A stretch of DNA of 64,000 nt. Origin: a virus. The stretch is taken from positions 1-64,000 of IMG/VR virus record IMGVR_UViG_3300011972_000003, one strand, 5' to 3'. The notes beneath the pieces were generated by a model that saw nothing but the letters and a program-made list of their open reading frames with translations, was not told the DNA's origin and made no database searches. Positions 1,852-20,137 of this stretch are shown in pieces; position 1 is the stretch's first letter, and each line of letters begins with the position of its first letter. Position numbers and translations under genes: made by a program.

Positions 1852-2700
1852 ATGGAAGACACACAACAGGGCTCCTCAGGGGTGGATATAAGGTCTACTC
1901 GCTTGATGGAGGTGTACCAGCAGATTAGTTCAGAAGACTCAATTAACTCGATGACGCTGATCTTATCCTCATTTCAGCGGAATACGTCTTACAACAAAGT
2001 ACTCCGGGATATCGAATCTGTACTAAACATTAACGGGAAGAACAGAACGATTATCAAAGAGTGGGAAGAAGATCAGAATCAGGAAGTTGATGAGGAAGGG
2101 TTAGAAATTGAATCAAGAAACTCAGCTATTAAAATGGTAGAGTCAACAGATGATATTATAACCAGAATCTTAGTCGAGGAGGTCAATGAGTTTATTAAGG
2201 AAGTAGAACAAGTGAATACGCGACCAAATCTATTAAAAGCCCTCGTAGCTAAATTCCTGCAGTCTAACTTCTATTACAAGGAGAGTACACTGTATAAGCC
2301 TAAGGAGTATGAGCAGATTATTTTAGAGTTTAACAATTACCCTTCACAGTTTACCGATTTTTGGCAGACAGTTATAGAAAGGTTTGAAGCTAAATTCCCT
2401 AAATCAAAACTTATCACACTACTTAAGAGACAGAATAACTTAGCTTTAATTAGGATAACTCACAATATCACAGAGTACATATCCGCACCACCAGCTGAGA
2501 GAAAATTATTCAGTGAGATTAGGAAGGAGTATCAGAAAATAATAAACCCACCTCTTCCAATCATTCTCAAGGCTTTAAATATGAACAAAGGGACTTACGA
2601 GGATAATATTAATATAGTTACAGGGAAGTTAGTTGATAAATTAAATGACCCAGAATTGACTAAGAAGTTTAACCAGATAATTTTGAACTATGGGATATAA
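1852..2700 (+). CDS. hypothetical protein (282 aa)
   Basis: ORF whose end overlaps the start of the beta-prime-like gene by 11 nt. No recognisable motif. Confidence 0.5.
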   Translation: MEDTQQGSSGVDIRSTRLMEVYQQISSEDSINSMTLILSSFQRNTSYNKVLRDIESVLNINGKNRTIIKEWEEDQNQEVDEEGLEIESRNSAIKMVESTDDIITRILVEEVNEFIKEVEQVNTRPNLLKALVAKFLQSNFYYKESTLYKPKEYEQIILEFNNYPSQFTDFWQTVIERFEAKFPKSKLITLLKRQNNLALIRITHNITEYISAPPAERKLFSEIRKEYQKIINPPLPIILKALNMNKGTYEDNINIVTGKLVDKLNDPELTKKFNQIILNYGI

Positions 2701-5700
2701 GGCGGTATCAGACCAGCGAATATTAGAGTTAGCAAGAGGACAGCAAGTTACAACCTATAATGACTTTAACCTCAAGATAGGAGAAGCTAACTCAACAAAA
2801 CTTTCACCGATTAATGGAGGGCTTTATGACAAGAACTTTTTCGGCTCGGTTTTTAGAGATAGATGTAATTGTGGTAACTTAAAGAATAGAATTAATATCA
2901 CTTGTAACATCTGCTCTTCAACTGTACTGCCTTCTGATGATGAGGTTTACCGTTACGCTTACATAGATACAACGGTTTACTATTTACTCAGATACAAGGA
3001 GAAGAAATTTTTAGCCTTAGTTCAAGATATATTAGAAATCCCAAAAGGTACAAGAAATAAAATCGACTACCTCTGTTTGTGTAATTATAAGTATGACAAG
3101 AAGGAGAATAGTATAGTATCTTCACTTGAGTATGTTGGGAGCGAGATTTATACTTCACTAGAGGGTCTTATGGCTTTACTAGAGAAACACTACCCAGATA
3201 AATTCAAGGAAGCTCAGAACTATATCAACAAGTATATCATCGTATCTCCTATTTCTCAAAGACCTGTAGCAATTAGAACGGTTAATGGAAAGAAGGAGCT
3301 TGCGGTATCAGGAGAATCTGTCATTTATAAGAGTATCATCTATATGGTTGAAATGGTGAATACTGAGATGAATGCTAGAGGTATCCCACTGGTAGATAAA
3401 GTGATGTATAGAAACTTGCTTAGAAAATTCGTTGTATCTCAGATTATGGCAATGAGTAAGCTAAACAATCCATCTAAACAGAACTTTGCAAGAACCCAGC
3501 TGAAGAAGAGAATAACAAACTCAGCTAGGAACTACATTGTACCAGATATAACTTTAAAGGCTGACGAGGTTTCTATTCCAATTAAAGTAGCTTATGAGAT
3601 GTTTAAGACGGATTTCATAGAGTATCTTAGGGAGAAATACCAGATTAGTCCTTTAGATGCAGAAATGAGGTATATTGACTTTACAACTTACAAGACTTTA
3701 GATGACTTTAGAGGTTGGGTCACAGATAGAAGAGTTATTATCAACAGGGCTCCATCTCTACATAAAGGATCTATTGGCTGTTATAAGGTTGTACTGAACG
3801 ATAACTTTACAATGGGTCTTAATCCTCTTATTATTGAACCTTATGGAGCTGATTTTGACGGGGACTCTCTTTCAATAACAGCTGTACCTAAGGATTATAC
3901 AGAATATGTTGAACAGAGGATAGGACCAGAAGCTTTATACTATCAGGAGTCAAATCTTAAAACCCTGCTTACACCTTCTCACGAGTTTCTTTTAGGGCTT
4001 AACCTTGGAAGTAGAATTGAGATGGGACCTAAGCCTATTAAGATTACAGATTCCTCACAGATAGAAGAGCTTTTAAATGCGAACAAAATTAACTATAACA
4101 CACCTTTAGAGTATAACGGAAAGCTTACTTGTTATGGTAGGCTGCTTCTCTCAACATACATAAAGGGAAATATAGATGACTTAATAGGAGAAGGTATGCC
4201 AATCAATGCAAAGAATATTCTGGTTATTATGGAGTACATCTCAGTTAAGTCAGACAGGTTAGATATCATTCATAAACTAGCTTCTTTTGGTTCAGAGGTT
4301 GTTAGATTTAAAGGAGTAACTTCCCTGACACTTAACGAATTATACCTCGATCTGGATACTAGTTTACATAAGGAAATGGTGAGAATTAAGAATGATGAAA
4401 GCCTATCTCCACAGCTGAAACTAATTAGAATATCGGAGGCTTATAAGAACTTTACTGAACAAGCCAAGGATTCACTTACACCAGCTATTAAAGACAGATT
4501 AGAGAGTTCAAACAGGATTAAGATGAAGCAGGTTCTCGATCTATCTATCCCTAAAATTACTATATCAAATGAGGGGGTTATAGATGTGATGGAAACGAAT
4601 CTCTTGAATGGACTCTCACCCGATGATTACTACTCTGATGCAATAACAAACCGTAAAGTAGTAGGAATTAAGCAAGGAGGTGTAGGGGGTTCAGGATATT
4701 TAACTAGACAGCTGGTAACTATTGGTAAAGGATTTAAGTTTCAAGATAAAGATGCTCCTGGGAATAGTTACTTAGAGGCCCAGGCTTCGCCATACTATAA
4801 AGGAAGACTTACAATAGAAGGGTATGAAGTAACAGAGAAAGATTACGGGAAAACTGTTAAGCTGCCATCTTGTATATTTAATAAGGACACTAACCTATAT
4901 AGAAATCAAGTGTCACAATTATTAGACTATTATCAAGACAGTAACATTGGATTCTCATTCTCTACAACCTTAACAGAAGCGATGACCCAGTCTGTACTCT
5001 CCATTAAACACAACGCTACATTTAAGATGATTAACGAAGGGTTTATACATAGGGCTAAGGCAGATGGAGAACTAGTAGAAGTAACAGATACAACCTATAC
5101 AATTAAGTACGGGGAGGTAACAGAGACTTATCCAAAAAGCAAGGAGTTTATCGTGAATTTGTATAAGTTTAAGAAAGGTGAAGTTATTGGGTATATTCAT
5201 AAGCTTCTCTCTCCGACATATAAGTTTGAGGCGATTTCTAAGCTTATTGATACTTTCCTGATTTCACTAGGTAATAAGAACGCTAATAACAATATACAAC
5301 CATCCGTGAGTTATTCGCCGTATGAAGGTATTATTAGTTATCAATTCTTGCCTCGTAATAAAATCGGTGTGTATATAGGAGATGTCATGATTAATTCTCA
5401 ACACTTAGATACACCTACTCTTTACTATTACCCAGAAGGAGCTAGAGTACCTCGGCACGCTAAGATCTCCTCTGATGTAGTAAGTATGAATAAGTACAGC
5501 AATCCAGAATTAACAGGAGATGAAGCAGTTAGAGATAGATATATGGTTTTCAGACAACAATTCCTAGAAGCTAATGGTAATGTAACTGAAGATTTAATTG
5601 AATTCCTATACCGTATTTGTTCAGTTAATTTAGGAGGACAACTTACATATTCAGGAGTTAAGGGTGCATTTAAAGAACTTCCGGCTCTATCTAAGATTGC

Positions 5701-5812
5701 CTTTGGTTACGCTAATAAGACCTTAGATAATCTACTGGAGAATGAGGGATCGGAAAGAGAAGACCCGCTTGACATTATATTTAGAAGCCAATTAGAATAC
5801 AACAATTTATAA
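2690..5812 (+). CDS. DNA-directed RNA polymerase beta-prime-like subunit (1040 aa)
   Basis: N-terminal Zn-ribbon CNCGNLKNRINITCNICSS resembles the RpoC motif CxCGK...CxxCG. NRAPSLHKGSIGCY resembles NRAPTLHRLGIQAF. EPYGADFDGDSLSI matches the catalytic NADFDGD Mg-binding motif. Confidence 0.8.
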   Translation: MGYKAVSDQRILELARGQQVTTYNDFNLKIGEANSTKLSPINGGLYDKNFFGSVFRDRCNCGNLKNRINITCNICSSTVLPSDDEVYRYAYIDTTVYYLLRYKEKKFLALVQDILEIPKGTRNKIDYLCLCNYKYDKKENSIVSSLEYVGSEIYTSLEGLMALLEKHYPDKFKEAQNYINKYIIVSPISQRPVAIRTVNGKKELAVSGESVIYKSIIYMVEMVNTEMNARGIPLVDKVMYRNLLRKFVVSQIMAMSKLNNPSKQNFARTQLKKRITNSARNYIVPDITLKADEVSIPIKVAYEMFKTDFIEYLREKYQISPLDAEMRYIDFTTYKTLDDFRGWVTDRRVIINRAPSLHKGSIGCYKVVLNDNFTMGLNPLIIEPYGADFDGDSLSITAVPKDYTEYVEQRIGPEALYYQESNLKTLLTPSHEFLLGLNLGSRIEMGPKPIKITDSSQIEELLNANKINYNTPLEYNGKLTCYGRLLLSTYIKGNIDDLIGEGMPINAKNILVIMEYISVKSDRLDIIHKLASFGSEVVRFKGVTSLTLNELYLDLDTSLHKEMVRIKNDESLSPQLKLIRISEAYKNFTEQAKDSLTPAIKDRLESSNRIKMKQVLDLSIPKITISNEGVIDVMETNLLNGLSPDDYYSDAITNRKVVGIKQGGVGGSGYLTRQLVTIGKGFKFQDKDAPGNSYLEAQASPYYKGRLTIEGYEVTEKDYGKTVKLPSCIFNKDTNLYRNQVSQLLDYYQDSNIGFSFSTTLTEAMTQSVLSIKHNATFKMINEGFIHRAKADGELVEVTDTTYTIKYGEVTETYPKSKEFIVNLYKFKKGEVIGYIHKLLSPTYKFEAISKLIDTFLISLGNKNANNNIQPSVSYSPYEGIISYQFLPRNKIGVYIGDVMINSQHLDTPTLYYYPEGARVPRHAKISSDVVSMNKYSNPELTGDEAVRDRYMVFRQQFLEANGNVTEDLIEFLYRICSVNLGGQLTYSGVKGAFKELPALSKIAFGYANKTLDNLLENEGSEREDPLDIIFRSQLEYNNL

Positions 5813-6279: not shown

Positions 6280-6505
6280 ATTTAGTGTATGCAGGTTCTT
6301 AAGATGGGATGGATTCAACGTAGATAATTTTATTGAGGAGCTTAAGGGGGAGATAAAACAAGACTCCCTCAAGGTTTCCCCAAATGAGAGTGACCCTACG
6401 ATGATGGACTTAGAGGTTTCAATCCCGCCAGAACTTAGGCATACAGTAGAAAATATATTAAAGAAGTACACAAAAATATACACGTGGATCAATGAACAGC
6501 TATAA
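6266..6505 (+). CDS. hypothetical small protein (79 aa)
   Basis: Short ORF filling the gap between neighbouring genes, with overlapping stop and start codons on both sides. Confidence 0.3.
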   Translation: MEEHRFSVCRFLRWDGFNVDNFIEELKGEIKQDSLKVSPNESDPTMMDLEVSIPPELRHTVENILKKYTKIYTWINEQL

Positions 6506-8720
6506 TTTTTTCATAGAGAACAGACTCCCGGAAATATTAACATCTTACTATAACAGCCCATTAAATAAGAGAGGTTTTGAGGTGGTTAATATATCAGTCG
6601 TTCACCCAAAAGTAGAGTTATCAAGAGCAATAGAACTCGAGCAAACTTATAATTACGAACTTCTGCTAAGCTACACGAATAGAGAGACAGGAGAGATGCC
6701 AGAGCCTATTGTGATTGAAGTTCCTAAGATGGTTAACGATTCCTTTATTATCTTCGGGAAATACAAAACACCTACTTTAATGCTGGATAACGATAGAAAT
6801 GCTAGGTTTTATGAGACTCAGTTCGTTATTGATCCAGATAAGACCTTTAACTACGAAACAGGACTCTTCAAATATATAGACAGTGAGGGGAATGAAGTAG
6901 TGATTGATGTTAATGCTATAGAGGAGTTACCGGAAGAGGCTAGAAAGGTTGATAAGAGTATACTAAAGAAGATTGAAATTAAGTTTAACCTGGATAAGCC
7001 TATAAATGAACTAACTAAAGATCTACTCATTCAAGCTAAGGAGAGGTTCGCAGGTTATAATGACAAAGTCGAAGACCATATCCTAGACAAGAAGGTTTTA
7101 ACGGTTCAAGCTGGTTTAGTTAATTTCATAAAGAGTCACAAGAAAGAGATCTACACAAGAATAGCTTCAGATTTACCAAGGAGAGGGAAGATTTATGCTA
7201 GTGAGATGAACAAATATATCCGTAAGTTCTTTTCACATGGAGGTATGATCGATAATCCTTCTAAAGTAAACTCTCTGACATTCTCTGCGTTATCTAGAAG
7301 GATTAAACTTTCAGAGTACACAGAGTATAACAGAAGCTTAGTAGACATCATAGACCCAATTAGAACTCCAGAAAATGCCAATGCGAATATCGTGAATGAG
7401 CTTAATGTTTGTTCTGTTATAGATGAGGATGGTGGGATTTCAATAAGAGTTCACGAGTTAGATTTTAAACCAGTTGTCCTTTCGTATATTGATTATTTTG
7501 ATGCTTATATAATTGACAACCAGAGTGTAGACTACGTTAATAAGAAAATCAATCCTAAAGTTAAAGTAAGAAGGAGAGGAGAAGTAATTGGAGAGTATAA
7601 GTTATCTGAAGTGCCTAAACCGTGCTATATAGATGCTTCTGCTGATGATAAACTTTCTTATTCAACTAGAAGGATACCGATGATTAACTATACTGACTCA
7701 ATTAGGGTATCAATGGGAGGAAACATGAGTAACCAAGCTGTTGAACTTATAAACCCAGATGTACCAGCAGTTAGTTCAGGACATGATGATGGAGCTAAGT
7801 CTCACCCTTTAAATATCTATGCATTATCTTCAGGAGTAGTTGATTATAAGGATAGAAATGTAATTAAAATAAAGGATGAGAAGGGAAGGTCTGTTGAGTA
7901 TAGATCCCACTTAGTTAATTCTATGTATGACCTAAACGTTGTGGTAGATCCTAAGGTAGAAGTAGGTGATCATGTTAATATTGGGGATACGATCTTTGCA
8001 CCTAGGAATATAACCTCTGAGTTTAGATTAGGAAAGAACTGTAGAATAGCCTTCATGCTTCACGGTAATAACTATGAGGATGGGGTAATAATGGGTTCTC
8101 ACTTGATTCCTAAATTCGCTCACATTGCAGTTAAGGACTATATCTTCATTCTAAAACCTGAGTCTGAGCTTACTTCTATTATGGATCTAGGAAAGGCTGT
8201 AGAGGAAGATGAGCAGATACTTGGAGTTAATGAAAGGATGTCTACTGAGGATTTAGATTTCTTGGCTGGAGCTGTGGATTATGGTAGAGTAAGTAAGCTA
8301 AAGGGATTCTTCATGACGGAGGGTCTAAGAGTGCCTAAGGATTTTGGGAGGGGTTACTTTACAGATATTATAGTTCAGAAAGGGAATGTAGAATCAGATC
8401 CAAATACAGAGCAAGTTATTAATGAAGTATTTAAGAGGTATAAGGCAGCTAGAAAGGAGGTAGCAAATATTGGTGAAATTCCAGAGAGCTACTTAAACTT
8501 GCCAATGGAACAACCAGAACCTCCTCAAATAGATTACAAATACATGATTAAAGTTCGCTTATTACAGGTCAATGAACTCAAGGTAGGGAATAAGATAACA
8601 AATAGGTATGGAAGTAAAGGTCTATGCTCACAAATTATTCCTGAAGATGAGATGCCAAGAACAAAAGATGGGCAGTTGATTGATGTGATAATGAATGCGG
8701 ACAGCACCGTAAAGTCGACT
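6492..8720 (+). CDS. DNA-directed RNA polymerase beta-like subunit, exon 1
   Basis: EVPKMVNDSFIIFGKYKTPTLMLDNDRNARF resembles the beta N-terminal region [51 protein letters not shown] resembles GQNVLVAFMPWNGYNYEDS. The C-terminal NRYGSKGLCSQIIPEDEMPRTKDGQLIDVIMNADSTVKS resembles [36 protein letters not shown]. The reading frame then hits a stop while the homology continues in exon 2. Confidence 0.75.
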
Positions 8721-8974
8721 TGTTGCGGTGGGTAAACCTTGTGAATTGCTGGGATATCCTACATGTGGTGGTGAGGACAATCAGCAGCCCTTATGGGTTC
8801 AACGACTATCGAAACTGTAGTAAAGGAGTAGAGTACACTTAAGCGAGTGGAAGCGCAAGGATAGAGGGTTAAACCTTTATGTGATATAGTCTGAACGTCC
8901 TTAGAAATAGGGAGCTGGAGTAATTTCCGGGATAAGAAGTAGCGAGCTTATCTGAACATAATTGAGCAAGAAAG
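8721..8974 (+). ncRNA. group I self-splicing intron, no ORF, interrupting the RNAP beta gene (boundaries approximate, within about 10 nt)
   Basis: The coding homology of beta breaks at ..STVKST and resumes in frame at [11 protein letters not shown] (cf. MNIGQILETHLG). The intervening 254 nt contain P7/R-like GGGTTCAACGACTATCGAAA (8795..8814) and S-like GATATAGTCT (8883..8892). A U precedes the proposed 5' splice site and a G ends the intron. The element is homologous to the intron in the topoisomerase gene. Confidence 0.6.
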
Positions 8975-10611: not shown

Positions 10612-10959
10612 ATGAGGAAGGTAATTGCAGTTTTAGGGATCACTCTTAGTTCACTGGCTTATTCACAACAACAATATGCTTCTTACTATGGTGACAACTT
10701 TCATAACAGGAATACAGCATCAGGTAAAAGGTTAAATATTTATGGAGACCACTGTGCACATAAGACATACCCTTTTGGAACTAAACTTTTAATAACAAAC
10801 ACAAATACTGGAGCTACTGCCGTTTGTACTGTAATTGATAGAGGTCCGTTTGTAAAGAATAGAGTACTAGATCTTACAACGACAACTTTTAAGCAATTAG
10901 GTGGAAAACTCAGAGACGGCTTAATTCCAGTAACAGTTAAAGTTCATGAGCAAAGCTAA
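10612..10959 (+). CDS. RlpA-like double-psi beta-barrel (DPBB) protein with signal peptide
   Basis: ASYYGDNFHNRNTASGKRLN...AHKTYPFGTKLLITNTNTGATAVCTVIDRGPF matches the RlpA/DPBB signature ASWYG..FHG..TASGE...AAHKTLPFGT.V.VTN..NG.SV.VRVNDRGPF. Confidence 0.6.
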   Translation: MRKVIAVLGITLSSLAYSQQQYASYYGDNFHNRNTASGKRLNIYGDHCAHKTYPFGTKLLITNTNTGATAVCTVIDRGPFVKNRVLDLTTTTFKQLGGKLRDGLIPVTVKVHEQS

Positions 10960-11303
10960 CAAAATAGATATTCAAACCCTCTCTTGGAACCAGCATATTA
11001 GACACAGACCAGGCATGTACGTCTCGAATGTGGATAACCCGACTGTGATTCTAAGGGAGGTTATTGATAATGGAATAGATGAAGTTTTAGGAGGTTACGC
11101 TTCAAAGTTAGGATTTAAACAAGTAGGGGATTTCTTAATGGTATATGATAATGGTAGAGGTATGCCGATTAACCTTAAGAATGACCCAACTAATCCTAAA
11201 GTAAAAATAACCTCTGCCGAAATAGCCACCTCTCGTATGAATTCAGGTAGTAAGTATGAGAAGAATGAGGTCGCAACTGGCATGAATGGTGTGTCATTGA
11301 TTT
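10946..11303 (+). CDS. type II topoisomerase ATPase subunit (GyrB / T4 gp39-like), exon 1 (GHKL domain)
   Basis: HIRHRPGMYV resembles VRKRPGMYIG. REVIDNGIDE resembles YEVVDNSIDE. DNGRGMP resembles DNGRGIP. GMNGVSLI resembles GLHGVGVSVV. The frame hits a stop at 11309 while the NALS motif continues in the downstream exon frame. Confidence 0.7.
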
Positions 11304-11634
11304 TCAGTTAGTTACGCACTCCTCTAGGGAAACTTAGGGGTAATAAAGTCCAAGAACTGCTGGGATAAACTCGTTAAGTAGTAAGTACCAAAGTGTGACA
11401 ATCTTACTAATAGAGACAATCAGCAGCCTTTAGATTAACTAGGGGTTCAACGACTATCGAAAGGTTCGCCGAGTAGAGTACGCTATAAGTCAATAATGAT
11501 AGTGGAAGCATGGACTACCCTAACGTAAAGCCGAGGGTAAAGATATAGTCTAGCCTTAGTGGAGACACTGAGAAGTTCATAGGAGAACTGCATAGGTTTG
11601 ACGAGCCTGTGTGACTAAAAGCGAGGAACAAAAG
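11304..11634 (+). ncRNA. group I self-splicing intron, no ORF, in the topoisomerase II gene (boundaries approximate)
   Basis: Joining 11303 to 11635 reconstitutes GMNGVSLISSNALS (cf. GLHGVGVSVVNALS), with a U before the 5' splice site and a terminal G. The core contains GACAATCAGCAGCC (11415..11428), GGGGTTCAACGACTATCGAAA (11442..11462) and AAGATATAGTCT (11540..11551). These are the same blocks as in the RNAP beta intron. Confidence 0.6.
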
Positions 11635-13133
11635 CATCTAACGCTCTATCTTCAACTTATGTATTATGTTCAAAGGTTACAAAGGATAACTATAAAACCA
11701 GCATAAAGAAAGTAGAAGAAGCGTATAATAAGAATAAAGATGTTTACTACCTGATAGAGTTTAAAGAAGGGAATAAGGTTCGTGAAGATGTACTTAGTTT
11801 GGAGGAGATATTTAAAAAGTACAAGTTGAAAGTGAAGTTGGAGTTTAAACCTTCTACCCTCGTATTCTTTAAACCAGATTATACACTTATCCAATCACCT
11901 AACTATGAATTACCGCTTACAAACCTAGCTCTTGTTAAGTTAATTGTTAAGGAGACTACGAAGAAAGAGGTAGAGTATTTTATAGAAGGTAAGGAGGTTG
12001 AATATGAACTCTTTAAGTGCCCTCTAAATATGACAATAGGGAAAACCAGACTCTTAACAACCTTTGATTTTGATACAGATTTAACTAAGGGAGTATCTAA
12101 GGGATCAGTTAACTCACTTGTTGTTAATAGAGGTCTACATATAAGAGAGATGGAGAATGCTTTAAAGGAAGGGCTTAGAGTGACTTATAATTTAGATGAT
12201 GTTTATGTTCAGTTTGTTTTGAAAGGACTTAACTTATCTATAATACTCTTAGCTAATGAAGTAGGGTTCTCATCTCAAACTAAGGAAAATCTCACTCAAA
12301 TAGATGGTTGGGATAAAAGTTGTAGAGAGAAGTTAATTGAAGAGGTTACTAAGTTTTTAAAGAAGAATAAGGCTGAGTTTGAAGAGCATATTGAGAGAGT
12401 TAAGGAGTTTACCGCCTCTATGAACAAACTTAAAAATATGGACTTCATTAAATCTAAGGTTATCCTCTCTTCTGATATTCGTAAAAGTAAAGGAGGTAAA
12501 GAGATTAGTAAGCTTAGGGATTGCAGCACCAGTAATCGAGCGGATGCAGAACTTTATATCGTAGAGGGAGATTCGGCAGCAGGTTCAATTACATCAGCGA
12601 GAGATTCTAAAGTGCATGGAGTTTATCCGCTCAGAGGTAAGGTGCTGAACTGCCAGAATAAGTCTTTAGAGCAAGTATTAGAAAACAAAGAGATAAGAGA
12701 TTTAATTAACGCTATAGGTGCAGGGATTAAAGGGTATGAACTAAAAGAGAAGCCGAGATTTGGAAAGATTATAGTGGCTACTGATGCTGATGATGACGGT
12801 TATTCTATTCAAGCTTTAGTTCTAGGAGTATTTGGAGAGTATATGCCGCACTTAATTGAGAAAGGATATGTTTACTGTTTAGTTCCACCTCTATATAAGC
12901 AAGAAGGGAAGTATTATTATGACGGAGAGGAGAAAGGATTAAATAGGAATAAGAAGTTCACTCGATATAAAGGGCTTGGTACAATGAACTCTGAAGATGT
13001 AGAAGAAACGTTAATTAAGAATAAGAGGCTGAAACAAGTTACTTTGGATGACCTAGATTATGCTAAAGAAATCCTCGGTACAACTTCAGCTAAGTATGAC
13101 CTAATGAAAGAAGCTGGGATAATTTATGGCTAA
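11635..13133 (+). CDS. type II topoisomerase subunit, exon 2 (transducer + Toprim)
   Basis: Toprim motifs YIVEGDSAAGS (cf. EGDSAGGS) and IIVATDADDDGYSIQ (cf. IMTDADVDGSHI). The listed ORF starts at TTG at 11799, but the frame is open from 11619. Confidence 0.7.
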
Positions 13134-14445
13134 GAAGAATAATAAAGTAGTAACCGAGTCTATTGGAGATATAGTTTCATTCGGGTATACAGAGTTTGGG
13201 AAATACATTAATACATCAAGAGTGTTTCCTAGGCTTCTCGATGGACTTAAACCTTCCTATAGACGTGGTATTTATGCATCTTATTTAGGAGGAAAGGATT
13301 ATGCAAAGTCAGCTGAGGTTTTAGGTAATATGATGAAGTTCCACCCTCACTCTACAGATGGGACGTATGAATCACTGGCAAAGTTTACGCTCTGTGGTAT
13401 TTTAGAAGGAGAAGGGAGTTTTGGTAGAGCTGATATTCTAGGAGATTCTGATGGTCCAGCTGCTGCTCGTTATACCGCTATTAAAGTATCAAAGAAACTC
13501 AGAGCGATGATAGAGCCAGTGTTAGACCTCGTCCCATGGCAAGATAGTGAGGTGAATGGAAATATAAAAGAACCGTCATACCTTCCTACACCATTTCCGT
13601 TATCCTTCTTAGTTGATAGGGTTTCTGGATTAGGGATTGGAGTTTCAGCTATCTTACCAACGTTTTCTATGGAGAGTATGTATGAAGCTTATATAACTAA
13701 TGACCCTAAGAAGCTGAAGTATAGAACTAAGGGACTTAAGATTATAGCAAAAGATTCAGACTTAGATGCACTATGGAAAACAGGGAAAGGATATCTAACT
13801 TACCAGTATGCCAAAATAACAAAGGGAGATAGGGAAGTTCTTATAGAGGGTGACCCAAGTAGATTTCCTATTCAGTTAGATAAAGGTGGTAAGGGAGATG
13901 ACAAACTATTTATGCAGTATAGAGAAGAGGGAAGAATATTAATTGACAACCTCTCCGACAAAACAAAACCAGGACTTCTAAGAGTTTACCTTTCACCGGG
14001 AACTAGAGGAGTGGATATAGACTGGCTGCATAAATACCTAACAGAAAAAGCTACCCACAAGGAAACGTATATGATTAATGTTACTGATGGAGAGACTGTT
14101 AGAACTATAGGGATTAGAGAGTGGATAGATATAACTTACAATAATTACATAAACCTACTGAACTTAAACCGGGATAACAAATTAAAGAGCCTAGAGTTTA
14201 GTAAGAAAGTTTACCTAGCTATGCCTGAAGTGGTTAAAGTATTTCTAAAGGATACGAGTGTCACAAATGAGCAGCTGGCAAAGAAGACCAAAGTAGATTT
14301 AGAGATTATTAAAGTTATTATGTCTAAGCCTATAGGTACACTGAGAAAGACTGATTCAGAAGCTAAGATTAAAGAAATAGAAAAAGAAATAAAAGCACTG
14401 AAGAAGTTTAAAGCGGAAGAATTTATCAAAGAACACATATTTTAA
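13126..14445 (+). CDS. type II topoisomerase DNA breakage-reunion subunit (GyrA / T4 gp52-like)
   Basis: SRVFPRLLDGLKPSYRRGIY resembles RALPDVRDGLKPVHRRVLY. HPHSTDGTYESLAKFT...GSFGRADILGDSDGPAAARYTAIKVSK resembles [40 protein letters not shown], including the catalytic Tyr region. Confidence 0.7.
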   Translation: MAKKNNKVVTESIGDIVSFGYTEFGKYINTSRVFPRLLDGLKPSYRRGIYASYLGGKDYAKSAEVLGNMMKFHPHSTDGTYESLAKFTLCGILEGEGSFGRADILGDSDGPAAARYTAIKVSKKLRAMIEPVLDLVPWQDSEVNGNIKEPSYLPTPFPLSFLVDRVSGLGIGVSAILPTFSMESMYEAYITNDPKKLKYRTKGLKIIAKDSDLDALWKTGKGYLTYQYAKITKGDREVLIEGDPSRFPIQLDKGGKGDDKLFMQYREEGRILIDNLSDKTKPGLLRVYLSPGTRGVDIDWLHKYLTEKATHKETYMINVTDGETVRTIGIREWIDITYNNYINLLNLNRDNKLKSLEFSKKVYLAMPEVVKVFLKDTSVTNEQLAKKTKVDLEIIKVIMSKPIGTLRKTDSEAKIKEIEKEIKALKKFKAEEFIKEHIF

Positions 14446-14457
14446 TACACAACAATT

Positions 14458-14694
14458 ATGAGAGCATTACTTGAGGACATCTTATTAGAGAACGGTTGGA
14501 ACAAAGCAGATGGAGTAGTTAACAAATCAATCCGAATCAATGGAGTAGAAATTTGGGAAGCTGAATGGTTAGGAGGAGAGTTACTGGGAAGAGTGAATGG
14601 GAAGATTAGAAATATTGTTACACTGTTTGAAGAAATGAAGTTGAATAAGACTGTAGCAAGAGCCGCTTTTCTTAGTATATTGAGACCGGCTTAG
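14458..14694 (+). CDS. hypothetical small protein (78 aa)
   Basis: ORF only. Confidence 0.35.
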   Translation: MRALLEDILLENGWNKADGVVNKSIRINGVEIWEAEWLGGELLGRVNGKIRNIVTLFEEMKLNKTVARAAFLSILRPA

Positions 14695-14814
14695 GCTGTG
14701 GGGAAAACCTTATATATGAGAAGAGAACTACAGGAGAGTGTATTTGGCGGCATTTTCCTGTTCTTCTAATCTCACGTGTAAATCAAATAAGTATAACAAA
14801 AAAAAAACAACATT

Positions 14815-15231
14815 ATGAGCACAAACAGAAACAAAACAGGAAAATTAAACTTGAACGTACAAATGAAACAAGCTATCGATTTAAGTTTAGCTTCAGGAGT
14901 ACCAGTTTTATTCCTGTCAAATCCCGGATGTTTCACTGAGGATACCAAAGTTATAACTGACAAAGGGGAATTAACTTTTGGAGAACTTTTAGAGAGACAT
15001 AATCAAGGGGAAAAATTTAGTGTAGTTTCTTGGGATACAGAAGCTCAGCAAGAAATTAACCCAGCTATGAAGTCAGCGTTTATCACAAAAGAGGTGGATG
15101 AGCTTATTGAAGTAGAGTTAAGTAATGGAGAAGTTTATAGATGTACTCCTGATCACTTACACCTACTTGCTGACGGAAAGACTTGGGTAGCTGCTGAGGA
15201 ATTAACAGTAGGACAAGAAGTAAAGGGGTAG
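14815..15231 (+). CDS. MoxR-like AAA+ ATPase N-extein (38 aa) fused to a split-intein N-fragment (IntN, about 100 aa)
   Basis: GVPVLFLSNPG is the start of the Walker A motif. It is immediately followed by CFTEDTKVITDKGE (intein block A, Cys1 at 14929..14931) and ...YRCTPDHLHLL (block B, TxxH). The protein ends at a stop after about 100 intein residues, as split-intein IntN fragments do. Confidence 0.7.
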   Translation: MSTNRNKTGKLNLNVQMKQAIDLSLASGVPVLFLSNPGCFTEDTKVITDKGELTFGELLERHNQGEKFSVVSWDTEAQQEINPAMKSAFITKEVDELIEVELSNGEVYRCTPDHLHLLADGKTWVAAEELTVGQEVKG

Positions 15232-15237
15232 AAAATT

Positions 15238-16257
15238 ATGGAAGAGATTAGCAGACTTTTTTATGTGAATTTCAGTGTTAAAGATTTAGTAGAGTATACC
15301 GGTGGAGATCAGTTTATAGATTTATTTCTCCAAGCTAAAGGGTATAAAATCTACAACTTCTTTAATAACCTGACAAACCAGCACTACGTAGGGGATAATT
15401 CATCAACTATGCAGGAGCGTCTGTTTAACTCTCTATTCGGACATTTTACCTACTTAAGAGAACAAAGGGACTATGGTGTAGATGGGAAGTACTTAGATAT
15501 ATTAGAGTACGGGCCAGAGAACTTTTACATTAGAATCTTACCACCTATTAATGGACATACTTACGATCAAGAAAAAGATGAAGAAGTGTGGATTAGTAGG
15601 CTTAATGCTTTTGTAGGGGATTTAAATGAGCTTAACCTTCCGGGATACAATAGAAGTAGAACTGGAAAGGGAATTTATTTAAATGAACCTATAAGACATG
15701 AAAAGATTTGTGTAAAGGGTAAAGACGGGTGTTATAAATTCATTTTTCCAAGCGAGCTAACTGAAGAGTTTATAGAGGTTGATTCAAAGGAATTTTATTC
15801 AGAGATGGGGAAACGGGGTATGCAGACTCACAGGGAAAATGGAACACACGTATTTAACAAAGCTCACCAAGTAAAACTACAGAAAGCTGGACTTAAATCT
15901 CAAAAGGAAAATGGTACAGGAATCTACAGCCCAGAAGTTAGAGAGAAGGCTTTTTATAATAGTCGTAAATCTCTAAGGGAAAGGAAAGTAGGTAGCTGTC
16001 ACGATCCAGAGCTTCAGAAAAAGATTAGAGAGTATGCCACTAAGGTATCATTCTTTAATAGGCTCAATGAAAGTATCCAGTTAATCTATGATATGTTTTA
16101 CAGAGGGACGCCAATTAATGAGCAGAGTTATAATTACGTGAAAACAAACAAACACTTCTCGTATAAAAAACTTCTGGTAATCCCTAAAATTATACCCCTC
16201 ATCATAGTCAATAACTTAATAAATAATAACAACAGTACACATTATGGAATCAACTAA
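15238..16257 (+). CDS. free-standing ORF (339 aa) between the split-intein halves; candidate homing endonuclease (family not recognised)
   Basis: It lies exactly between the IntN and IntC genes. Its end overlaps the IntC start by 14 nt. No LAGLIDADG, HNH or GIY-YIG motif was recognised with confidence. Confidence 0.4.
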   Translation: MEEISRLFYVNFSVKDLVEYTGGDQFIDLFLQAKGYKIYNFFNNLTNQHYVGDNSSTMQERLFNSLFGHFTYLREQRDYGVDGKYLDILEYGPENFYIRILPPINGHTYDQEKDEEVWISRLNAFVGDLNELNLPGYNRSRTGKGIYLNEPIRHEKICVKGKDGCYKFIFPSELTEEFIEVDSKEFYSEMGKRGMQTHRENGTHVFNKAHQVKLQKAGLKSQKENGTGIYSPEVREKAFYNSRKSLRERKVGSCHDPELQKKIREYATKVSFFNRLNESIQLIYDMFYRGTPINEQSYNYVKTNKHFSYKKLLVIPKIIPLIIVNNLINNNNSTHYGIN

Positions 16258-17566
16258 AATAACAGTAAAAAGCATAAAAAGAATTAAATTAGAAGCACCA
16301 GTAAAAGTATATGATTTGGAAGTAGATCACCCGAGTCATAACTTTAAATTAGCCGCTGGGAACTTCGTGCATAACTGTGGGAAAACTACGATTGTGCAAA
16401 AATACGCCAAGGCTAATGGATATGGATATGTAGGAATTAACGGGGGTGAGTATTCTCCTGAAGATATCCTAGGTTTCCCAGTGAATCAGAATGGTGAAGC
16501 AGTAAACCTAAAGCCGGACTGGTTCAAGAAAGTGGAGGAAGAATCTGCTACTCATGAAAAGGTAATCTTATTTATTGACGAGTTAACTACCGCTTCTGAG
16601 TATGTACAGTCTCCGCTATTGAAGGTGATCTTTGATAGAATGGTGGGTCAGAGAAAGTTACCATCAAATGTAGAGATTATTTCTGCAGGTAACTATCAGG
16701 AGAATCTAGGGCAGAACTTTGACCTTATCTCTCCAATTATTAACAGATTCATGGTGTATAACTTAATATCTGTGACAAAGGAGGACTTCCAGTTGTTCCT
16801 AGACGCTGACTTCGCCGCTACAATAGACTTTAGAGAGTCACCAGATGAAGTAGAGGTTGATGAGAAAGTTATCCAAGAGGCACTTATGGACTTCATCGCG
16901 GCGAAAGGGCTTAGTCTAGATGTAATGAATAATACTGAGCTTTCTGATTTATATAGAGGGAGAAGTAGAGTATTCAACCCGCCAACATGGAGATCTGTAG
17001 GTAGACTTAAACCACTCCTACACGCCGCTGCTAAGAAAGGTCTATTAGGGTCTATGGTAACTAAAACTCTAGTAAATGGTCTAATTGGATTCCTACCTGA
17101 TAAAGAGCTTCAAGGTTCATTCAACGGAGATGTGGGAGAAACTCTAATAAATCTTCTAAAACAAAATCCAGCTCTATCTAATTTAATGAAGACTGCGGTA
17201 ACGTTTAAAGATGTTGAGTGGTTCTTAGATTCAAACATAGAGAAAGGAATTGATGAGGCTAAACTTCAAGAATTCTTAGAGATGTTTGATAAGGATAGTA
17301 AGATCTTAACCTTTGGTGAGGCTGAGAAACTGATTGATAACTTCTCCTCTAAACTATGGTCAATCAAGACTACTTACCTTAAACCTAAATTAGAGAACAA
17401 AGAGATTAAGCCAGCGGACAGTAAAGCTTATATTAGCAAGTTCTCAGAAGGTATTAACAAGGTGATTGATGTACTTGAGAAATTAGCCAAGAAAGATGAT
17501 ATTCACGAGCACAACATAGTTAAGAATAAGAGAAAGTCTGTTGAATCAGTTAATAGAATCGGGTAA
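16244..17566 (+). CDS. split-intein C-fragment (IntC, 44 aa) fused to the MoxR-like AAA+ ATPase C-extein
   Basis: KVYDLEVDHPSHNFKLAAGNFVHN matches intein blocks F and G (VYDLxV..HNF...hVHN), followed by the +1 Cys. CGKTT then completes the Walker A motif begun in the N-extein (SNPG|CGKTT). Walker B is at ILFIDELTTAS. IISAGNYQEN...LISPIINRF resembles the MoxR sensor and Arg-finger region. Confidence 0.75.
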   Translation: MESTKITVKSIKRIKLEAPVKVYDLEVDHPSHNFKLAAGNFVHNCGKTTIVQKYAKANGYGYVGINGGEYSPEDILGFPVNQNGEAVNLKPDWFKKVEEESATHEKVILFIDELTTASEYVQSPLLKVIFDRMVGQRKLPSNVEIISAGNYQENLGQNFDLISPIINRFMVYNLISVTKEDFQLFLDADFAATIDFRESPDEVEVDEKVIQEALMDFIAAKGLSLDVMNNTELSDLYRGRSRVFNPPTWRSVGRLKPLLHAAAKKGLLGSMVTKTLVNGLIGFLPDKELQGSFNGDVGETLINLLKQNPALSNLMKTAVTFKDVEWFLDSNIEKGIDEAKLQEFLEMFDKDSKILTFGEAEKLIDNFSSKLWSIKTTYLKPKLENKEIKPADSKAYISKFSEGINKVIDVLEKLAKKDDIHEHNIVKNKRKSVESVNRIG

Positions 17567-17568
17567 AC

Positions 17569-19101
17569 ATGAGAAAGGATTATGTAAAGAAAGTAGATGA
17601 GTTTAACAGCAAATACTACGTTAACTACATCTACGAAGACATCTCAGACAATTTAGATCCGAGTCACATGGGAGTTCCTATTGCTGGGTTAATTCAAAAG
17701 GATATAACTCACTGGAAACTTCTGATGAGGGAGAGCGTGTTTGAAGATAAGGAGAGTAAAATAAGAGAGAGTGTTATATATCATGAGTATGGACACGCTT
17801 TCTTTGCTCACCACCTCCTAGCTTATAAGGGTTTAAAGACTCTGGAGGGGATTATTAACAAACCGGATTATGTAGAAAGGATGGCCAAAATAAGCGGTCG
17901 TCCTAAAATCTACATAAAGGCTCTTCTATCTAACCAGCAGTTTATATTCAACCTTCTTAACATTGCTGCAGATTGTGAGATTAACTCTAAGATCTTAACT
18001 CTGGAGGATGTAGAAGCTATAGACCAGGCCTTTGAAGCTGACTCTATCCACCCATCTAAGTATGCATTCCTTGAGGGTAAAACTTATCTTGAGTACGTAG
18101 AAATGGTAGCTGAGTATCTAAACTTATTCCTACCACCAAAACAACAAGATCAACAGGGAGGCGGAGACGGACAACAGGGAGAAGGAGAAGGCGAAGGTGA
18201 TGGTCAAGGTGGAGGTTCTGGAGAATGGGATTTATCTGGAATGCCTGGCTCTGGTACTGGATCTAACTTTATTACACCTGACATGATCGAGAAAATGGTT
18301 GATGAAGGTTTGATAGATGAAGATGGGAACTTGACAGATAAAGGTAAGGAGCAGATGAAGGAGCTTAAGAGTTCTGGAGGTGAATCTAAAGAAGGTCAGG
18401 GAGAGTCTAGTGGAAATAATGGTGAAGATGGAGAACAAGAAGGTGGAGCAGGAAAGCCAGACCCTAGATTCCAAGATAATGGTAGAGGGAACTCAGGAGG
18501 AGCAGTACTAACTAGGAATACTCAGAATATCTTAAAGTCTATGGATGATTTGTTTAGAGACTTGAGAAATAAAGAGGTAACTAAAATGACTACTACAAGA
18601 AACCTATTTAAGAATCAATTAAGGGGTCGTAGTGGTAATATGTACGTTCCAGCTCTTAAGATGAACCCAGCTAAGGTAAAGGTTGAACAAATGACCTTCC
18701 TTGTTGATGTCTCCGGGTCTATGGATGAGCGTTCTATTTTCGGTATTATAAACGATATCGCAACTAGAGTGAAGAAGATAGGTCTAGATAGGGTTAGGCT
18801 TATTACATGGAATACTGGATTTGTACAAGACTTGATGATAAGAGATTTTGAGCCTAAGAGAGGTATGCTTCGTATTGGAGGTGGTACTGATCTAGCTAAA
18901 GGTTTAAAACATATCAGAGAGCTTGACGAAGGTGTTCCTATTGTAGTAATATCTGACCTTTGTGATGACATGAAAGCTTGGAATAGAGAGTTTGACAAAA
19001 TAAAAGATCCCAAGTATGTTGTTACTCTAGGACATGTAAATAAAAGTGACGTAAAAGCGATAAACAAGGATGTGAAAATCTTTGAGAGCGATTACGATTA
19101 A
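17569..19101 (+). CDS. von Willebrand factor A protein with N-terminal HExxH metallopeptidase-like domain (MoxR partner, DUF2201-like architecture)
   Basis: VIYHEYGHAFFAHH carries an HExxH motif. A Gly/Glu/Gln-rich low-complexity linker follows. FLVDVSGSMDERS is the MIDAS DxSGS motif, and ..GGGTDLAKGL matches vWA. Confidence 0.7.
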   Translation: MRKDYVKKVDEFNSKYYVNYIYEDISDNLDPSHMGVPIAGLIQKDITHWKLLMRESVFEDKESKIRESVIYHEYGHAFFAHHLLAYKGLKTLEGIINKPDYVERMAKISGRPKIYIKALLSNQQFIFNLLNIAADCEINSKILTLEDVEAIDQAFEADSIHPSKYAFLEGKTYLEYVEMVAEYLNLFLPPKQQDQQGGGDGQQGEGEGEGDGQGGGSGEWDLSGMPGSGTGSNFITPDMIEKMVDEGLIDEDGNLTDKGKEQMKELKSSGGESKEGQGESSGNNGEDGEQEGGAGKPDPRFQDNGRGNSGGAVLTRNTQNILKSMDDLFRDLRNKEVTKMTTTRNLFKNQLRGRSGNMYVPALKMNPAKVKVEQMTFLVDVSGSMDERSIFGIINDIATRVKKIGLDRVRLITWNTGFVQDLMIRDFEPKRGMLRIGGGTDLAKGLKHIRELDEGVPIVVISDLCDDMKAWNREFDKIKDPKYVVTLGHVNKSDVKAINKDVKIFESDYD

Positions 19102-19138
19102 ACAATAACTAACAAATCTTTAACTAACTATATAATTT

Positions 19139-20137
19139 ATGATTTTAAGTATCGACTGTGGGTACGGACACTTTAAGTACTGTATCTACGATGAAAAAAC
19201 AAGTAAAATTATTAAGTTAGATAAAGAGGTTACAGGTGTGATAGAGGTGCCAGAAGGAGATTCATCCATGGTTACCTCTGTTGCAACCTACCACCACTTC
19301 GATGGAAAAAGGTATTTAGTGGGTGAGCTGGCGACAAAACTAGACCGGCTCCCTATTGATACTTTAACTTACGAAGGATTCAAGGAGGTAGGACCAATAC
19401 TAATCTCTTATCTACTTAACAAATTCCAATCAGAAGGTATTGAAAAGATCGCTTTGGGGTTGACCCCCGTGATCTGGGATAAGCGTGAAGATTACAAAAG
19501 CTATATCTTAGAGAAACTTAATTTGCCTTCCGAAAAGATAGATATTCATGTTCAAGGTCTTTCAGGTCACGCTACTTATTCACAGTACGGACTAGATATA
19601 AACCCTGATGGAAAAATCTCTATGGAAGCTAAATCTGCTAACTATTTTGGACTGGACGTTGGGTTTAATACAATAGACACTTACCTTGTTTTAAATAACT
19701 CTCTCCTCGATTATGGGATTAAAGGGTTTGCAAATAAAGGTGTAGTTCTTGTAGCAAATAAAATTAAAACCCATATCTTTGAACACCTTGGAATCTCTAT
19801 AAATGATGTTGAAGCTAAGGAAGTGGTAACGATGGGAGGTTATAAGAAGAGAGGTAAGTTCCACGATTTATCAGACAAGATCACTGAGTTTATCGTAGAG
19901 TACCTAACTTCAACCTTCAATATGTTAGAGGAGGAGTATGGAGATCAGTTTAACAAAGTAGATAATATTCTTCTATTTGGTGGAGGAGCTGAGATAATTA
20001 AGATCTACATGGAGAAGTCAGACGTTATTAGAAAAACAATAGCTGACCTTTATGGAGATGAGTTCCTATTACTACCAAAAGATAAAGCAGAGTATTACAA
20101 CACAATCGGATATTCACTATTAAGCAGCAAGAAATAA
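19139..20137 (+). CDS. actin-like ATPase (ParM/Alp family)
   Basis: Phosphate-1 motif ILSIDCGYGHFKY. Phosphate-2 motif YFGLDVGFNTIDTYLV. Adenosine motif ILLFGGGAEII. C-terminal connect-2 motif IGYSLL. Confidence 0.6.
   Translation: MILSIDCGYGHFKYCIYDEKTSKIIKLDKEVTGVIEVPEGDSSMVTSVATYHHFDGKRYLVGELATKLDRLPIDTLTYEGFKEVGPILISYLLNKFQSEGIEKIALGLTPVIWDKREDYKSYILEKLNLPSEKIDIHVQGLSGHATYSQYGLDINPDGKISMEAKSANYFGLDVGFNTIDTYLVLNNSLLDYGIKGFANKGVVLVANKIKTHIFEHLGISINDVEAKEVVTMGGYKKRGKFHDLSDKITEFIVEYLTSTFNMLEEEYGDQFNKVDNILLFGGGAEIIKIYMEKSDVIRKTIADLYGDEFLLLPKDKAEYYNTIGYSLLSSKK

Follow-up and report, generated by a model that had tools for sequence, protein, structure and literature searches.

The window analysed here is a stretch of 64,000 nt, positions 1 to 64,000 of the IMG/VR virus record IMGVR_UViG_3300011972_000003. 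It includes a fractured AAA+ ATPase gene (14815-17566) in which the predicted halves of a split intein interrupt the Walker A motif (P-loop) and are separated by an open reading frame (ORF) for a putative GIY-YIG endonuclease. The three genes are co-directional on the + strand, as are the downstream partner gene and the group I intron described below. Their placement is identical to that in an earlier annotation made without database searches (the sequence-only reading), and the coordinates and sequence features given there for gene 1, the middle ORF and gene 3 were all found as described.

Gene 1 (14815-15231, stop included) encodes 38 aa of N-extein followed by 100 aa of the N-terminal intein half (IntN). 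The N-extein (14815..14928) represents ATPase residues 1-38 (MSTN…VLFLSNPG), ends in the first half of Walker A, and can be aligned to the N-termini of the uninterrupted homologs P0006-P0009 (…IPVLIMGNPG|TGKTT). IntN (14929..15231, with the 100 aa in 14929-15228) reads CFTEDTKV…TPDHLHL…EVKG and is closed by a TAG stop at 15229-15231. A non-coding spacer of 6 nt, AAAATT (15232..15237), leads from this stop to the ATG of the free-standing endonuclease ORF (15238..16257; 339 aa). IntN and the middle ORF share a frame, and TAG-AAA-ATT is all that separates them.

Gene 3 (16244-17566) encodes the C-terminal intein half (IntC) and the C-extein. Its ATG is embedded in the last 14 nt of the endonuclease ORF and is read in a different frame, so the overlap noted in the sequence-only reading is present and measures 14 nt. 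IntC (16244..16375) is 44 aa long (VYDLEV…VHN), carries blocks F and G, and has the terminus …VYDLEVDHPSHNFKLAAGNFVHN. The C-extein (16376..17566; 396 aa) starts with CGKTT, the second half of Walker A, and continues through an AAA+ core with the Walker B motif LFIDE into a C-terminal helical region. A partner gene with a putative vWA-like C-terminal domain (17569..19101) follows downstream, outside the mobile element. The start codons of all three genes (14806-14820, 15229-15243 and 16235-16249) lie in a common context, A(A/C)ATTATG(A/G), with A-rich sequence upstream. No clear Shine-Dalgarno motif was seen at the three starts, and an upstream G-rich run (AAGGGG) is found at the endonuclease start only.

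Predicted intein halves in the P-loop of the ATPase

IntN and IntC each score above the curated cut-off of an NCBIfam intein profile. IntN matches TIGR01445 (intein_Nterm) with 43.9 bits against a cut-off of 24.5, over residues 39-114 of gene 1, and IntC matches TIGR01443 (intein_Cterm) with 16.7 bits against 15.6. The profile search of the two flanking segments suggested in the sequence-only reading thus came out in favour of intein splicing domains on both sides. Pfam Intein_splicing also matches both halves, below its threshold. Among solved inteins, the joined halves match Pho RadA (E 6e-9) and the NrdJ-1 split intein (E 3e-7), and more weakly the DnaE (Ssp, Npu; E 5e-3 to 6e-3), RecA and DnaX inteins. 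The sequence match to gp41-1 does not reach E 0.01.

The residues of a class 1 intein are in place. Cys1 of block A is Cys39 of gene 1 (CFTEDTKV), directly after the N-extein, and is invariant in the family alignment, as is block B, T73-P-D-H76 in intein numbering (alignment A1). Blocks F and G, the terminal His-Asn and Cys+1 are all present (VYDLEVDHPSHNF…NFVHN|CGKTT), and the family alignment shows no variation in Cys1, TxxH, the terminal HN or Cys+1, even among distant members. The net charge of IntN is -12, and that of IntC is +2, with +4 across its first 22 aa. Matches above curated cut-offs for both halves, together with their recurrence in 22 loci (see below), are far more than chance would give, and support the view that the locus encodes the halves of a class 1 intein for which splicing is predicted.

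The intein insertion point lies between residues 4 and 5 of Walker A (S-N-P-G|C-G-K-T), a position that follows from the uninterrupted homologs P0006-P0009 (35-48% identical), which are continuous across the junction (…NPG[T/M/F/Y]GKTT…). Splicing in silico gives a predicted product of 434 aa containing both Walker A and Walker B (…ILFIDE) of the AAA+ core. The predicted junction is …SNPGCGKTT… (junction peptide …VPVLFLSNPGCGK, spanning peptide …SGVPVLFLSNPG-CGK…), and the fused extein junction DNA would read …TCAAATCCCGGA-TGTGGGAAAACT…. Scores against Pfam rise with splicing. Gene 3 alone matches AAA (PF00004, cut-off 21.2) with 25.0 bits from profile position 8, and the spliced sequence with 34.9 bits from position 1; for AAA_5 (cut-off 22) the score increases from 22.6 to 31.9 bits. 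The proposal that a split intein cuts the Walker A P-loop is therefore upheld by curated profiles, by homologs that read through the site and by the improved AAA score of the spliced sequence.

The same anatomy bears on the possibility that the halves serve as a high-affinity dimerisation module and associate with no peptide bond being formed, as in the split NrdA of Aeromonas phage Aeh1. Genes-in-pieces that function with no splicing are known (PMC2677866; PMC3045599). However, the break falls inside the P-loop (NPG|CGKT), where association alone would leave ~144 intein residues wedged in the nucleotide-binding site, and the residues that would serve only the splicing chemistry, Cys1, TxxH, the terminal HN and Cys+1, are retained even in distant members. 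Association of the halves with no ligation is considered improbable.

The name MoxR, used in the sequence-only reading for a MoxR/vWA pair, is plausible but weak for this ATPase. The AAA+ core with Walker A and Walker B stands, but the spliced ATPase reaches only 20.6 bits against AAA_3 (PF07726; cut-off 27), and bpMoxR (PF20030) is passed by homolog P0006 only (28.0, cut-off 27). The best PHROG is a generic 'ATPase', phrog_1297 (E 4e-30), a family with members in N4-like phages too, some of which are annotated as MoxR-like. Identity to the ATPases of N4-like phages is only ~30%. For the partner gene, VWA_CoxE (24.2 bits) and DUF2201 (19.3 bits) are both sub-threshold (cut-off 26.4 for each). 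A partner gene of similar size is also found 3′ of the uninterrupted homolog P0007 in L023.

Recurrence and maintenance of the split layout

The same ATPase was surveyed in 22 loci taken from assemblies in ENA, Logan and IMG/VR; the contigs reach 185 kb, and extein identity is 64-100%. The three-gene layout is present in all of these independently assembled loci, which differ in sample of origin and in assembler. Each of the 21 loci that cover the region has a stop after an IntN of exactly 100 aa, and none of the 22 has a disrupted endonuclease ORF (339-350 aa). In the relatives, 4, 5, 6 or 9 nt separate the IntN stop from the endonuclease ATG, giving all three frame relations, with 1446 nt in L022. 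Overlaps between the endonuclease and IntC genes are 10, 14, 16, 25 or 35 nt. In L022 (1455-2798), a 447-aa TnpB-like gene (Cas12f1-like TNB, HTH_OrfB_IS605) lies between the IntN and endonuclease genes. This locus is otherwise near-identical, with both intein halves and both exteins intact, and the first residues of the endonuclease are replaced by a new N-terminus. As the TnpB insertion is tolerated, the intein cannot be contiguous there.

These comparisons address the possibility that sequencing errors created the 15229 stop and the shift of frame within 16244-16257, or that TAG read-through and frameshifting bypass them, and that the locus encodes a contiguous intein like that of the helicase P0013 described below. 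In its favour, TAG-AAA-ATT is the only interruption between IntN and the endonuclease in the window, a one-nucleotide deletion near 16255-16257 would fuse the endonuclease to IntC, contiguous homologs exist, and an endonuclease–IntC fusion is found in one relative (L006, P0035). Against it, the IntN stop is always kept while the short spacers take all frames across the 22 loci, the overlap with IntC varies, and a 1.4-kb insertion separates the halves in L022; in addition, no tRNA or suppressor was found in the window. A single recoding event could not be conserved across spacers that vary in length and frame. Assembly error, read-through and frameshifting were therefore rejected, and a contiguous intein at this locus is barely credible. 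The sequence-only reading had itself named assembly errors at these two points as a way in which it might fail, and it withstood that comparison. From the pattern across loci, the intein is judged to be truly split and not an artefact.

All parts of the locus also appear to be kept by purifying selection, as indicated by low ratios of non-synonymous to synonymous differences (pN/pS) throughout. Over ~205 locus pairs, the median is lowest for the C-extein (0.06), followed by IntN (0.11) and the endonuclease (0.13). This bears on an alternative in which an endonuclease gene landed in a mini-intein and the pieces are now the pseudogene remnants of a decaying element, with no functional ATPase produced. 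In its favour, no intein-less allele that would show active homing was found in the clade, and both junctions of the element are prone to indels. However, no disruption is seen in any of the five coding segments across the 22 loci, pN/pS is 0.06-0.13 at synonymous divergence of up to ~0.6, IntN is under about the same constraint as the AAA+ core, and all catalytic intein residues are conserved. The layout moreover persists across lineages that are saturated at synonymous sites in the C-terminal extein (window and L001, synonymous divergence, dS, of 2.2). Decay is therefore regarded as very improbable.

The endonuclease and its contiguous relatives

The GIY-YIG catalytic domain covers approximately residues 35-140 of the middle ORF (nt ~15340-15657) and includes Y39, Y50, G52, R61, H69, E115 and N138. 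The motifs read K-I-Y39 … Y50-V-G52. Residues Y39, Y50, G52, E115 and N138 are invariant in the family alignment (alignment A2), and R61 and H69 are conserved. A word-indexed protein search with the middle ORF found one homolog only, and an exhaustive HMMER search found 23 relatives, reaching distant ones. PF01541 is matched by 4 of the 15 aligned relatives. The family profile aligns with the I-TevI catalytic domain 1LN0 over the whole length of the domain (E 8e-15). An AlphaFold2 (AF2) model of the endonuclease has a mean predicted local distance difference test (pLDDT) score of 79.9, with values of 84-95 at residues 11-70 and 83-95 at 81-120. The best three Foldseek matches to this model are I-TevI catalytic domains (probability 0.99-1.00; target TM-score, TMt, 0.66-0.72), the first being 1LN0 (probability 1.0, TMt 0.71). 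The ORF that the sequence-only reading put forward as a candidate homing endonuclease is thus assigned, by family profile and predicted fold, to a divergent I-TevI-type GIY-YIG subfamily of putative nucleases.

A helical repeat module is located at approximately residues 185-265 (nt ~15790-16032). As it recurs beside HNH_3 or GIY-YIG nuclease domains in other proteins, it is interpreted as a shuffled nuclease-associated module that is probably DNA-binding. No NUMOD match was found in the window endonuclease. Like I-TevI from the T4 td intron (PDB 1LN0, 1MK0), the window endonuclease has the GIY-YIG catalytic residues and a separate C-terminal DNA-binding part, putative in this case. I-TevI, however, is intron-encoded and has a zinc finger and a helix-turn-helix, whereas the helical repeat module of the window endonuclease is of a different kind, common to HNH_3 proteins. 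The window endonuclease also differs in a ~35-aa N-terminal extension (…VKDLVEY…) that corresponds to the IntN–endonuclease linker of contiguous inteins.

The nearest free-standing relatives of the endonuclease, P0017 and P0020, are not located between intein halves, and P0017 lies 3′ of an nrdB gene. In L110 (1563-6238), P0020 is found between two ORFs resembling an RNA polymerase beta-prime subunit split at its catalytic motif (…GYGADNF… up to a stop, then MFDGDS…). No intein halves were detected around P0020, and the polymerase gene is apparently fractured by the endonuclease gene alone.

Three single ORFs, from three contigs and three samples, carry the same parts in contiguous form. These are P0012 (813 aa; L102 1412-3853), P0013 (925 aa; L005 6001-8778) and P0019 (931 aa; L101 281-3076), all of helicase type, and in each the P-loop is interrupted (…APPG|CF…VHN|CGKS…) by an insert collinear with IntN, the endonuclease and IntC of the window. 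The inserts share 31-34% identity with IntN, 26-33% with the endonuclease and 44-47% with IntC. In a tblastn search, residues 184-568 of P0013 aligned as one segment to window positions 14893-16131 (E 6e-39). Pfam Intein_splicing covers the entire helicase insert above its threshold, and in an AlphaFold model of the P0013 insert the termini are β-rich, are predicted with confidence and resemble 41 solved inteins at E ≤ 1e-3. The three proteins are thus predicted to contain contiguous inteins with an in-frame GIY-YIG domain, in the order HINT N-part, endonuclease, HINT C-part; the predicted intein of P0013 has a length of 448 aa. They are like the bifunctional inteins PI-SceI and PI-PfuI in having HINT–endonuclease–HINT in one ORF, but their nuclease is of the GIY-YIG family and not LAGLIDADG or HNH.

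The helicase family of P0013 is found in other large phages, where it is mostly uninterrupted, and a search of the window for a helicase of this type gave none. One member of the family, on a 306-kb viral contig (L107 797-3499), is interrupted at the identical point of its P-loop by another, larger intein (PPG|CMRGDT…SHN|CGKT), the 3′ part of which is apparently broken off into a second ORF.

Relatives in further states of fusion were also found. P0036 is the helicase of P0013 with the same intein lacking the endonuclease domain, that is, a mini-intein. In L006 (5001-7340), P0035 (779 aa) combines the endonuclease, IntC and the C-extein in one reading frame, and IntN is a separate gene. P0035 has 87 member sequences and is found on three contigs of 50-200 kb; the L006 contig (185 kb) belongs to a phage closely related to that of the window. 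The C-terminus of the window endonuclease, …HYGIN before its stop, aligns with …KYGIDNHKV… of the contiguous forms. P0067 (468 aa) has an N-extein ending in …CECPTG followed by IntN (CFTGDTKV…CTPDH) fused to a PF01541 GIY-YIG domain. It may represent the opposite half-fused state in another P-loop protein, on a contig of 1959 nt that is too short to judge. With half-fused, contiguous and split relatives at hand, both cassette junctions are read as indel hot spots at which the element would switch between fused and split forms.

Arranged by state, the series includes the mini-intein of P0036, the contiguous GIY-YIG intein, the half-fused form in L006 (P0035), the fully split form in the window, and the split form with TnpB in L022. 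In one reading, the window cassette is the split form of a single mobile cassette, the contiguous form is a bifunctional GIY-YIG intein, and the stages exist side by side; opinion on this is evenly balanced. The finding of one cassette in the P-loops of two unrelated nucleoside triphosphatases (NTPases) is read as probable transfer, and fits the idea, put forward in a 2025 survey, that inteins switch hosts through shared similarity of nucleotide-binding sites.

An IMG/VR search with the family alignment for contiguous or split GIY-YIG cassettes recovered only the window's own clade. Other related inteins in IMG/VR have other endonuclease domains or none, for example one of HNH type in L092. 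The contiguous GIY-YIG form is thus either rare or poorly sampled in that collection. A ribonucleotide reductase on a 188-kb contig (P0037, 646 aa) has two inteins, the first of which ends in a C-terminal block (FDIEVDHPSHNF…VFVHN) sharing 56% identity with the window IntC. P0037 may belong to the same group of phages, in which case a single genome might hold several related inteins.

In 2009, inteins were not known to contain GIY-YIG domains (Dassa et al. 2009, PMC2677866), and the 2025 survey lists only LAGLIDADG and HNH among in-frame intein endonucleases and proposes that indels could weld free-standing endonuclease genes into inteins. In the literature searched, the scope of which did not extend to subscription journals, GIY-YIG endonucleases accompany inteins in the split arrangement only, and no earlier report of an in-frame GIY-YIG intein was found.

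Proposed splicing and homing of the cassette

The locus is best explained by a split intein that functions in trans-splicing and is associated with a GIY-YIG endonuclease, and this explanation is considered highly probable. The anatomy that follows is observed in the sequence, and each functional step is inferred from it. The locus would be a fractured gene in which a class 1 intein in the Walker A motif of a phage AAA+ ATPase is made as two separately translated halves, with a free-standing I-TevI-type GIY-YIG gene occupying the position of the endonuclease domain of bifunctional inteins. The three genes and the downstream vWA gene would be co-transcribed, as no terminator was found and the genes are spaced by 6 nt and overlap by 14 nt. 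Three polypeptides would result, with translation of IntC and the C-extein probably coupled to termination of the endonuclease ORF. The acidic IntN and the basic N-terminus of IntC would then associate and fold into a HINT domain. An N-S acyl shift at Cys1, trans-thioesterification to Cys+1, cyclisation of the terminal Asn and an S-N shift would yield the 434-aa ATPase with an intact P-loop. As neither fragment has a complete nucleotide-binding site, ATPase function would depend on splicing.

For homing, the endonuclease would cut intein-less ATPase alleles near the P-loop codons in co-infecting relatives, and recombinational repair would copy the whole IntN–endonuclease–IntC cassette. The cassette would thus be one evolutionary unit, moving between fused and split forms through small indels at its two junctions. 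In 204 of 207 locus pairs, the endonuclease shows less synonymous divergence than its flanks (median ratio 0.46). Between the window and L002, pS of the endonuclease is 0.107 versus 0.34 (Fisher p ~1e-9). Read most simply, these differences mean that exchange between genomes has been more recent for the endonuclease gene than for the sequence around it.

Several results weigh against this account. Promoter-like sites in 14400-17700 are fewer than in shuffled sequences and terminators are absent, which says little about transcription. Some published loci have a hairpin in the 5′ part of the endonuclease gene. There is no clear hairpin signal at the window locus; none was seen at the starts of genes 1 and 3, and at the endonuclease start a weak stem includes the ATG region (minimum free energy -12.3 kcal/mol, z -1.7), with 15 of 200 shuffles folding equally well. 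The profile search of the 339-aa ORF proposed in the sequence-only reading succeeded with the family profile but not with the single sequence, which scores 31.2 bits against TIGR01453 (group I intron endonuclease; E 2e-7, cut-off 56.05) and has no match in Pfam or PHROG. The low dS of the endonuclease could have causes besides recent exchange. No intein-less allele was found in the ATPase clade, all 22 of 22 loci being occupied with no presence/absence polymorphism, and degenerate empty-site patterns gave 0 matches in IMG/VR and JGI metagenome contigs. The nearest uninterrupted ATPase homologs are only 47-48% identical. In a homing cycle, the endonuclease of a fixed element is expected to decay, and here it is intact. 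With no empty site among the sampled sequences, present-day active homing of the cassette is much less certain than a functional split intein. That an apparently fixed element keeps its endonuclease intact might be due to targets outside the sampled sequences or to a secondary role.

Such a role is the basis of a further alternative, in which the split intein is functional and the GIY-YIG protein no longer acts in homing but, for example, in marker exclusion through cleavage of competing phage genomes, in regulation of the operon, or through its gene as a source of start signals for IntC. The element looks fixed, with no empty allele, and the endonuclease is nevertheless under purifying selection. 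Placement of the IntC start codon inside the endonuclease ORF also matches the suggestion that the invading element supplies the start of the downstream gene (PMC2677866). On the other side, the synonymous divergence of the endonuclease is less than half of that of both flanks, which fits recent exchange, and the cassette has reached a second host gene. A domesticated endonuclease is thus unlikely on balance, though a possibility to be taken seriously, and the split intein with a homing-type endonuclease is retained as the working explanation in the comparisons below.

The sequence-only reading had called a split intein in a MoxR/vWA pair of a phage unusual. The layout of the locus has been known since 2009 (PMC2677866) and is also found in AceL NrdHF (PMC7891396), but the host protein is new. 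Dassa et al. described fractured genes with split inteins, including GIY-YIG endonuclease genes, 3′ overlap with the IntC gene and opposite charges of the natural split-intein halves (PMC2677866), and the window arrangement has all the defining features of these loci. It is like gp41-1, NrdJ-1 and IMPDH-1 in gene order, in the use of one strand and in having an endonuclease gene (GIY-YIG or Vsr-like) between the halves. Overlaps between the endonuclease and IntC genes measure 6-69 bp in those loci, against 14 bp in the window. Also shared are the position of the split, at the canonical endonuclease-insertion point, the phage origin and the opposite charges of the halves. Unlike in those loci, the host is an AAA+ (MoxR-like) ATPase and not gp41, IMPDH, DnaE, NrdA/J, ligase or terminase, and the intein sequence is distant (NrdJ-1, E 3e-7; gp41-1, above 0.01). 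The present loci also differ in being complete in genomes of ~185 kb, in having been sampled 22 times with junction polymorphism, and in having contiguous homologs of the cassette. What appears to be new is the host protein, the collinear contiguous GIY-YIG homologs, the series of states and the cassette in the P-loops of two NTPases.

AceL NrdHF (PMC7891396) is likewise a phage-like metagenomic fractured gene with a putative GIY-YIG endonuclease between its halves, and its IntN and IntC are 98 and 48 aa long, compared with 100 and 44 aa in the window. However, AceL is a class 3 intein (Ala1, WCT), whereas that of the window is class 1 (Cys1, no WCT requirement), and host gene and site are different. 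In Aeromonas phage Aeh1, nrdA is split by the HNH gene mobE, and in T4-like phages gp43 is split by a GIY-YIG gene (PMC2677866; PMC3045599). In these, as in the window, an essential phage gene is divided into two co-oriented genes by a free-standing endonuclease gene, but they have no intein and the fragments assemble non-covalently; L110 is of that kind.

The cyanobacterial DnaE split inteins (Ssp, Npu) are natural class 1 trans-splicers with the same structural split position as the window intein, for which splicing is predicted. IntN of DnaE is about 100-123 aa and IntC about 36 aa. The halves of DnaE split inteins are far apart in the genome and have no associated endonuclease. In the window, by contrast, the distance between the halves is ~1 kb and is taken up by an intact endonuclease gene.

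As a tool, the locus would provide a complete natural class 1 split intein (IntN 100 aa, IntC 44 aa, Gly -1, Cys +1; splicing predicted). Its distance from characterised pairs makes it a reasonable candidate for an orthogonal trans-splicing pair, with ~20 natural variants for comparison. Matched split, half-fused and contiguous versions make two long-standing ideas testable: that free-standing endonuclease genes break inteins into split inteins, and that indels weld endonuclease genes into inteins as new domains. If all states are functional, they would form a natural series in which inteins gain and lose endonuclease domains, and split inteins originate, via one- or two-nucleotide indels. The contiguous GIY-YIG inteins would add a third nuclease family to those found inside inteins, and the cassette, if the reading is correct, would have jumped between the P-loops of two unrelated NTPases. 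For annotation, gene callers give the halves of the ATPase as separate hypothetical proteins, and the P-loop is invisible unless the intein is recognised.

A megablast search with 14000-19200 gave no match among GenBank phages, so the genome has no close cultured relative there. Multisubunit RNA polymerase beta-like ORFs of phage type and an actin-like gene (MreB/Alp7A, 'partition protein') are found at 2690-5812, 6492-8735 and 19139-20137 of the window, with the actin-like gene adjoining the ATPase–vWA pair. Together with a topoisomerase II gene and the relatives of ~185 kb, these genes suggest that the phage is large and encodes transcription and segregation functions of its own. The topoisomerase gene, for a T4 gp39-like large subunit (10946-13133), is interrupted by a group I intron at 11274-11572 (Rfam RF00028, 63.3 bits, gathering threshold 50, E 1e-15), which was missed by the gathering scan of the whole window. 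The predicted '121-aa' ORF (10946-11311) and 'TTG-start 444-aa' ORF (11799-13133) are exon fragments of this gene. The intron is polymorphic: L003 lacks it and has an uninterrupted 618-aa gene, in the window and L006 it contains no ORF, and in L002 it is larger and holds a 263-aa ORF.

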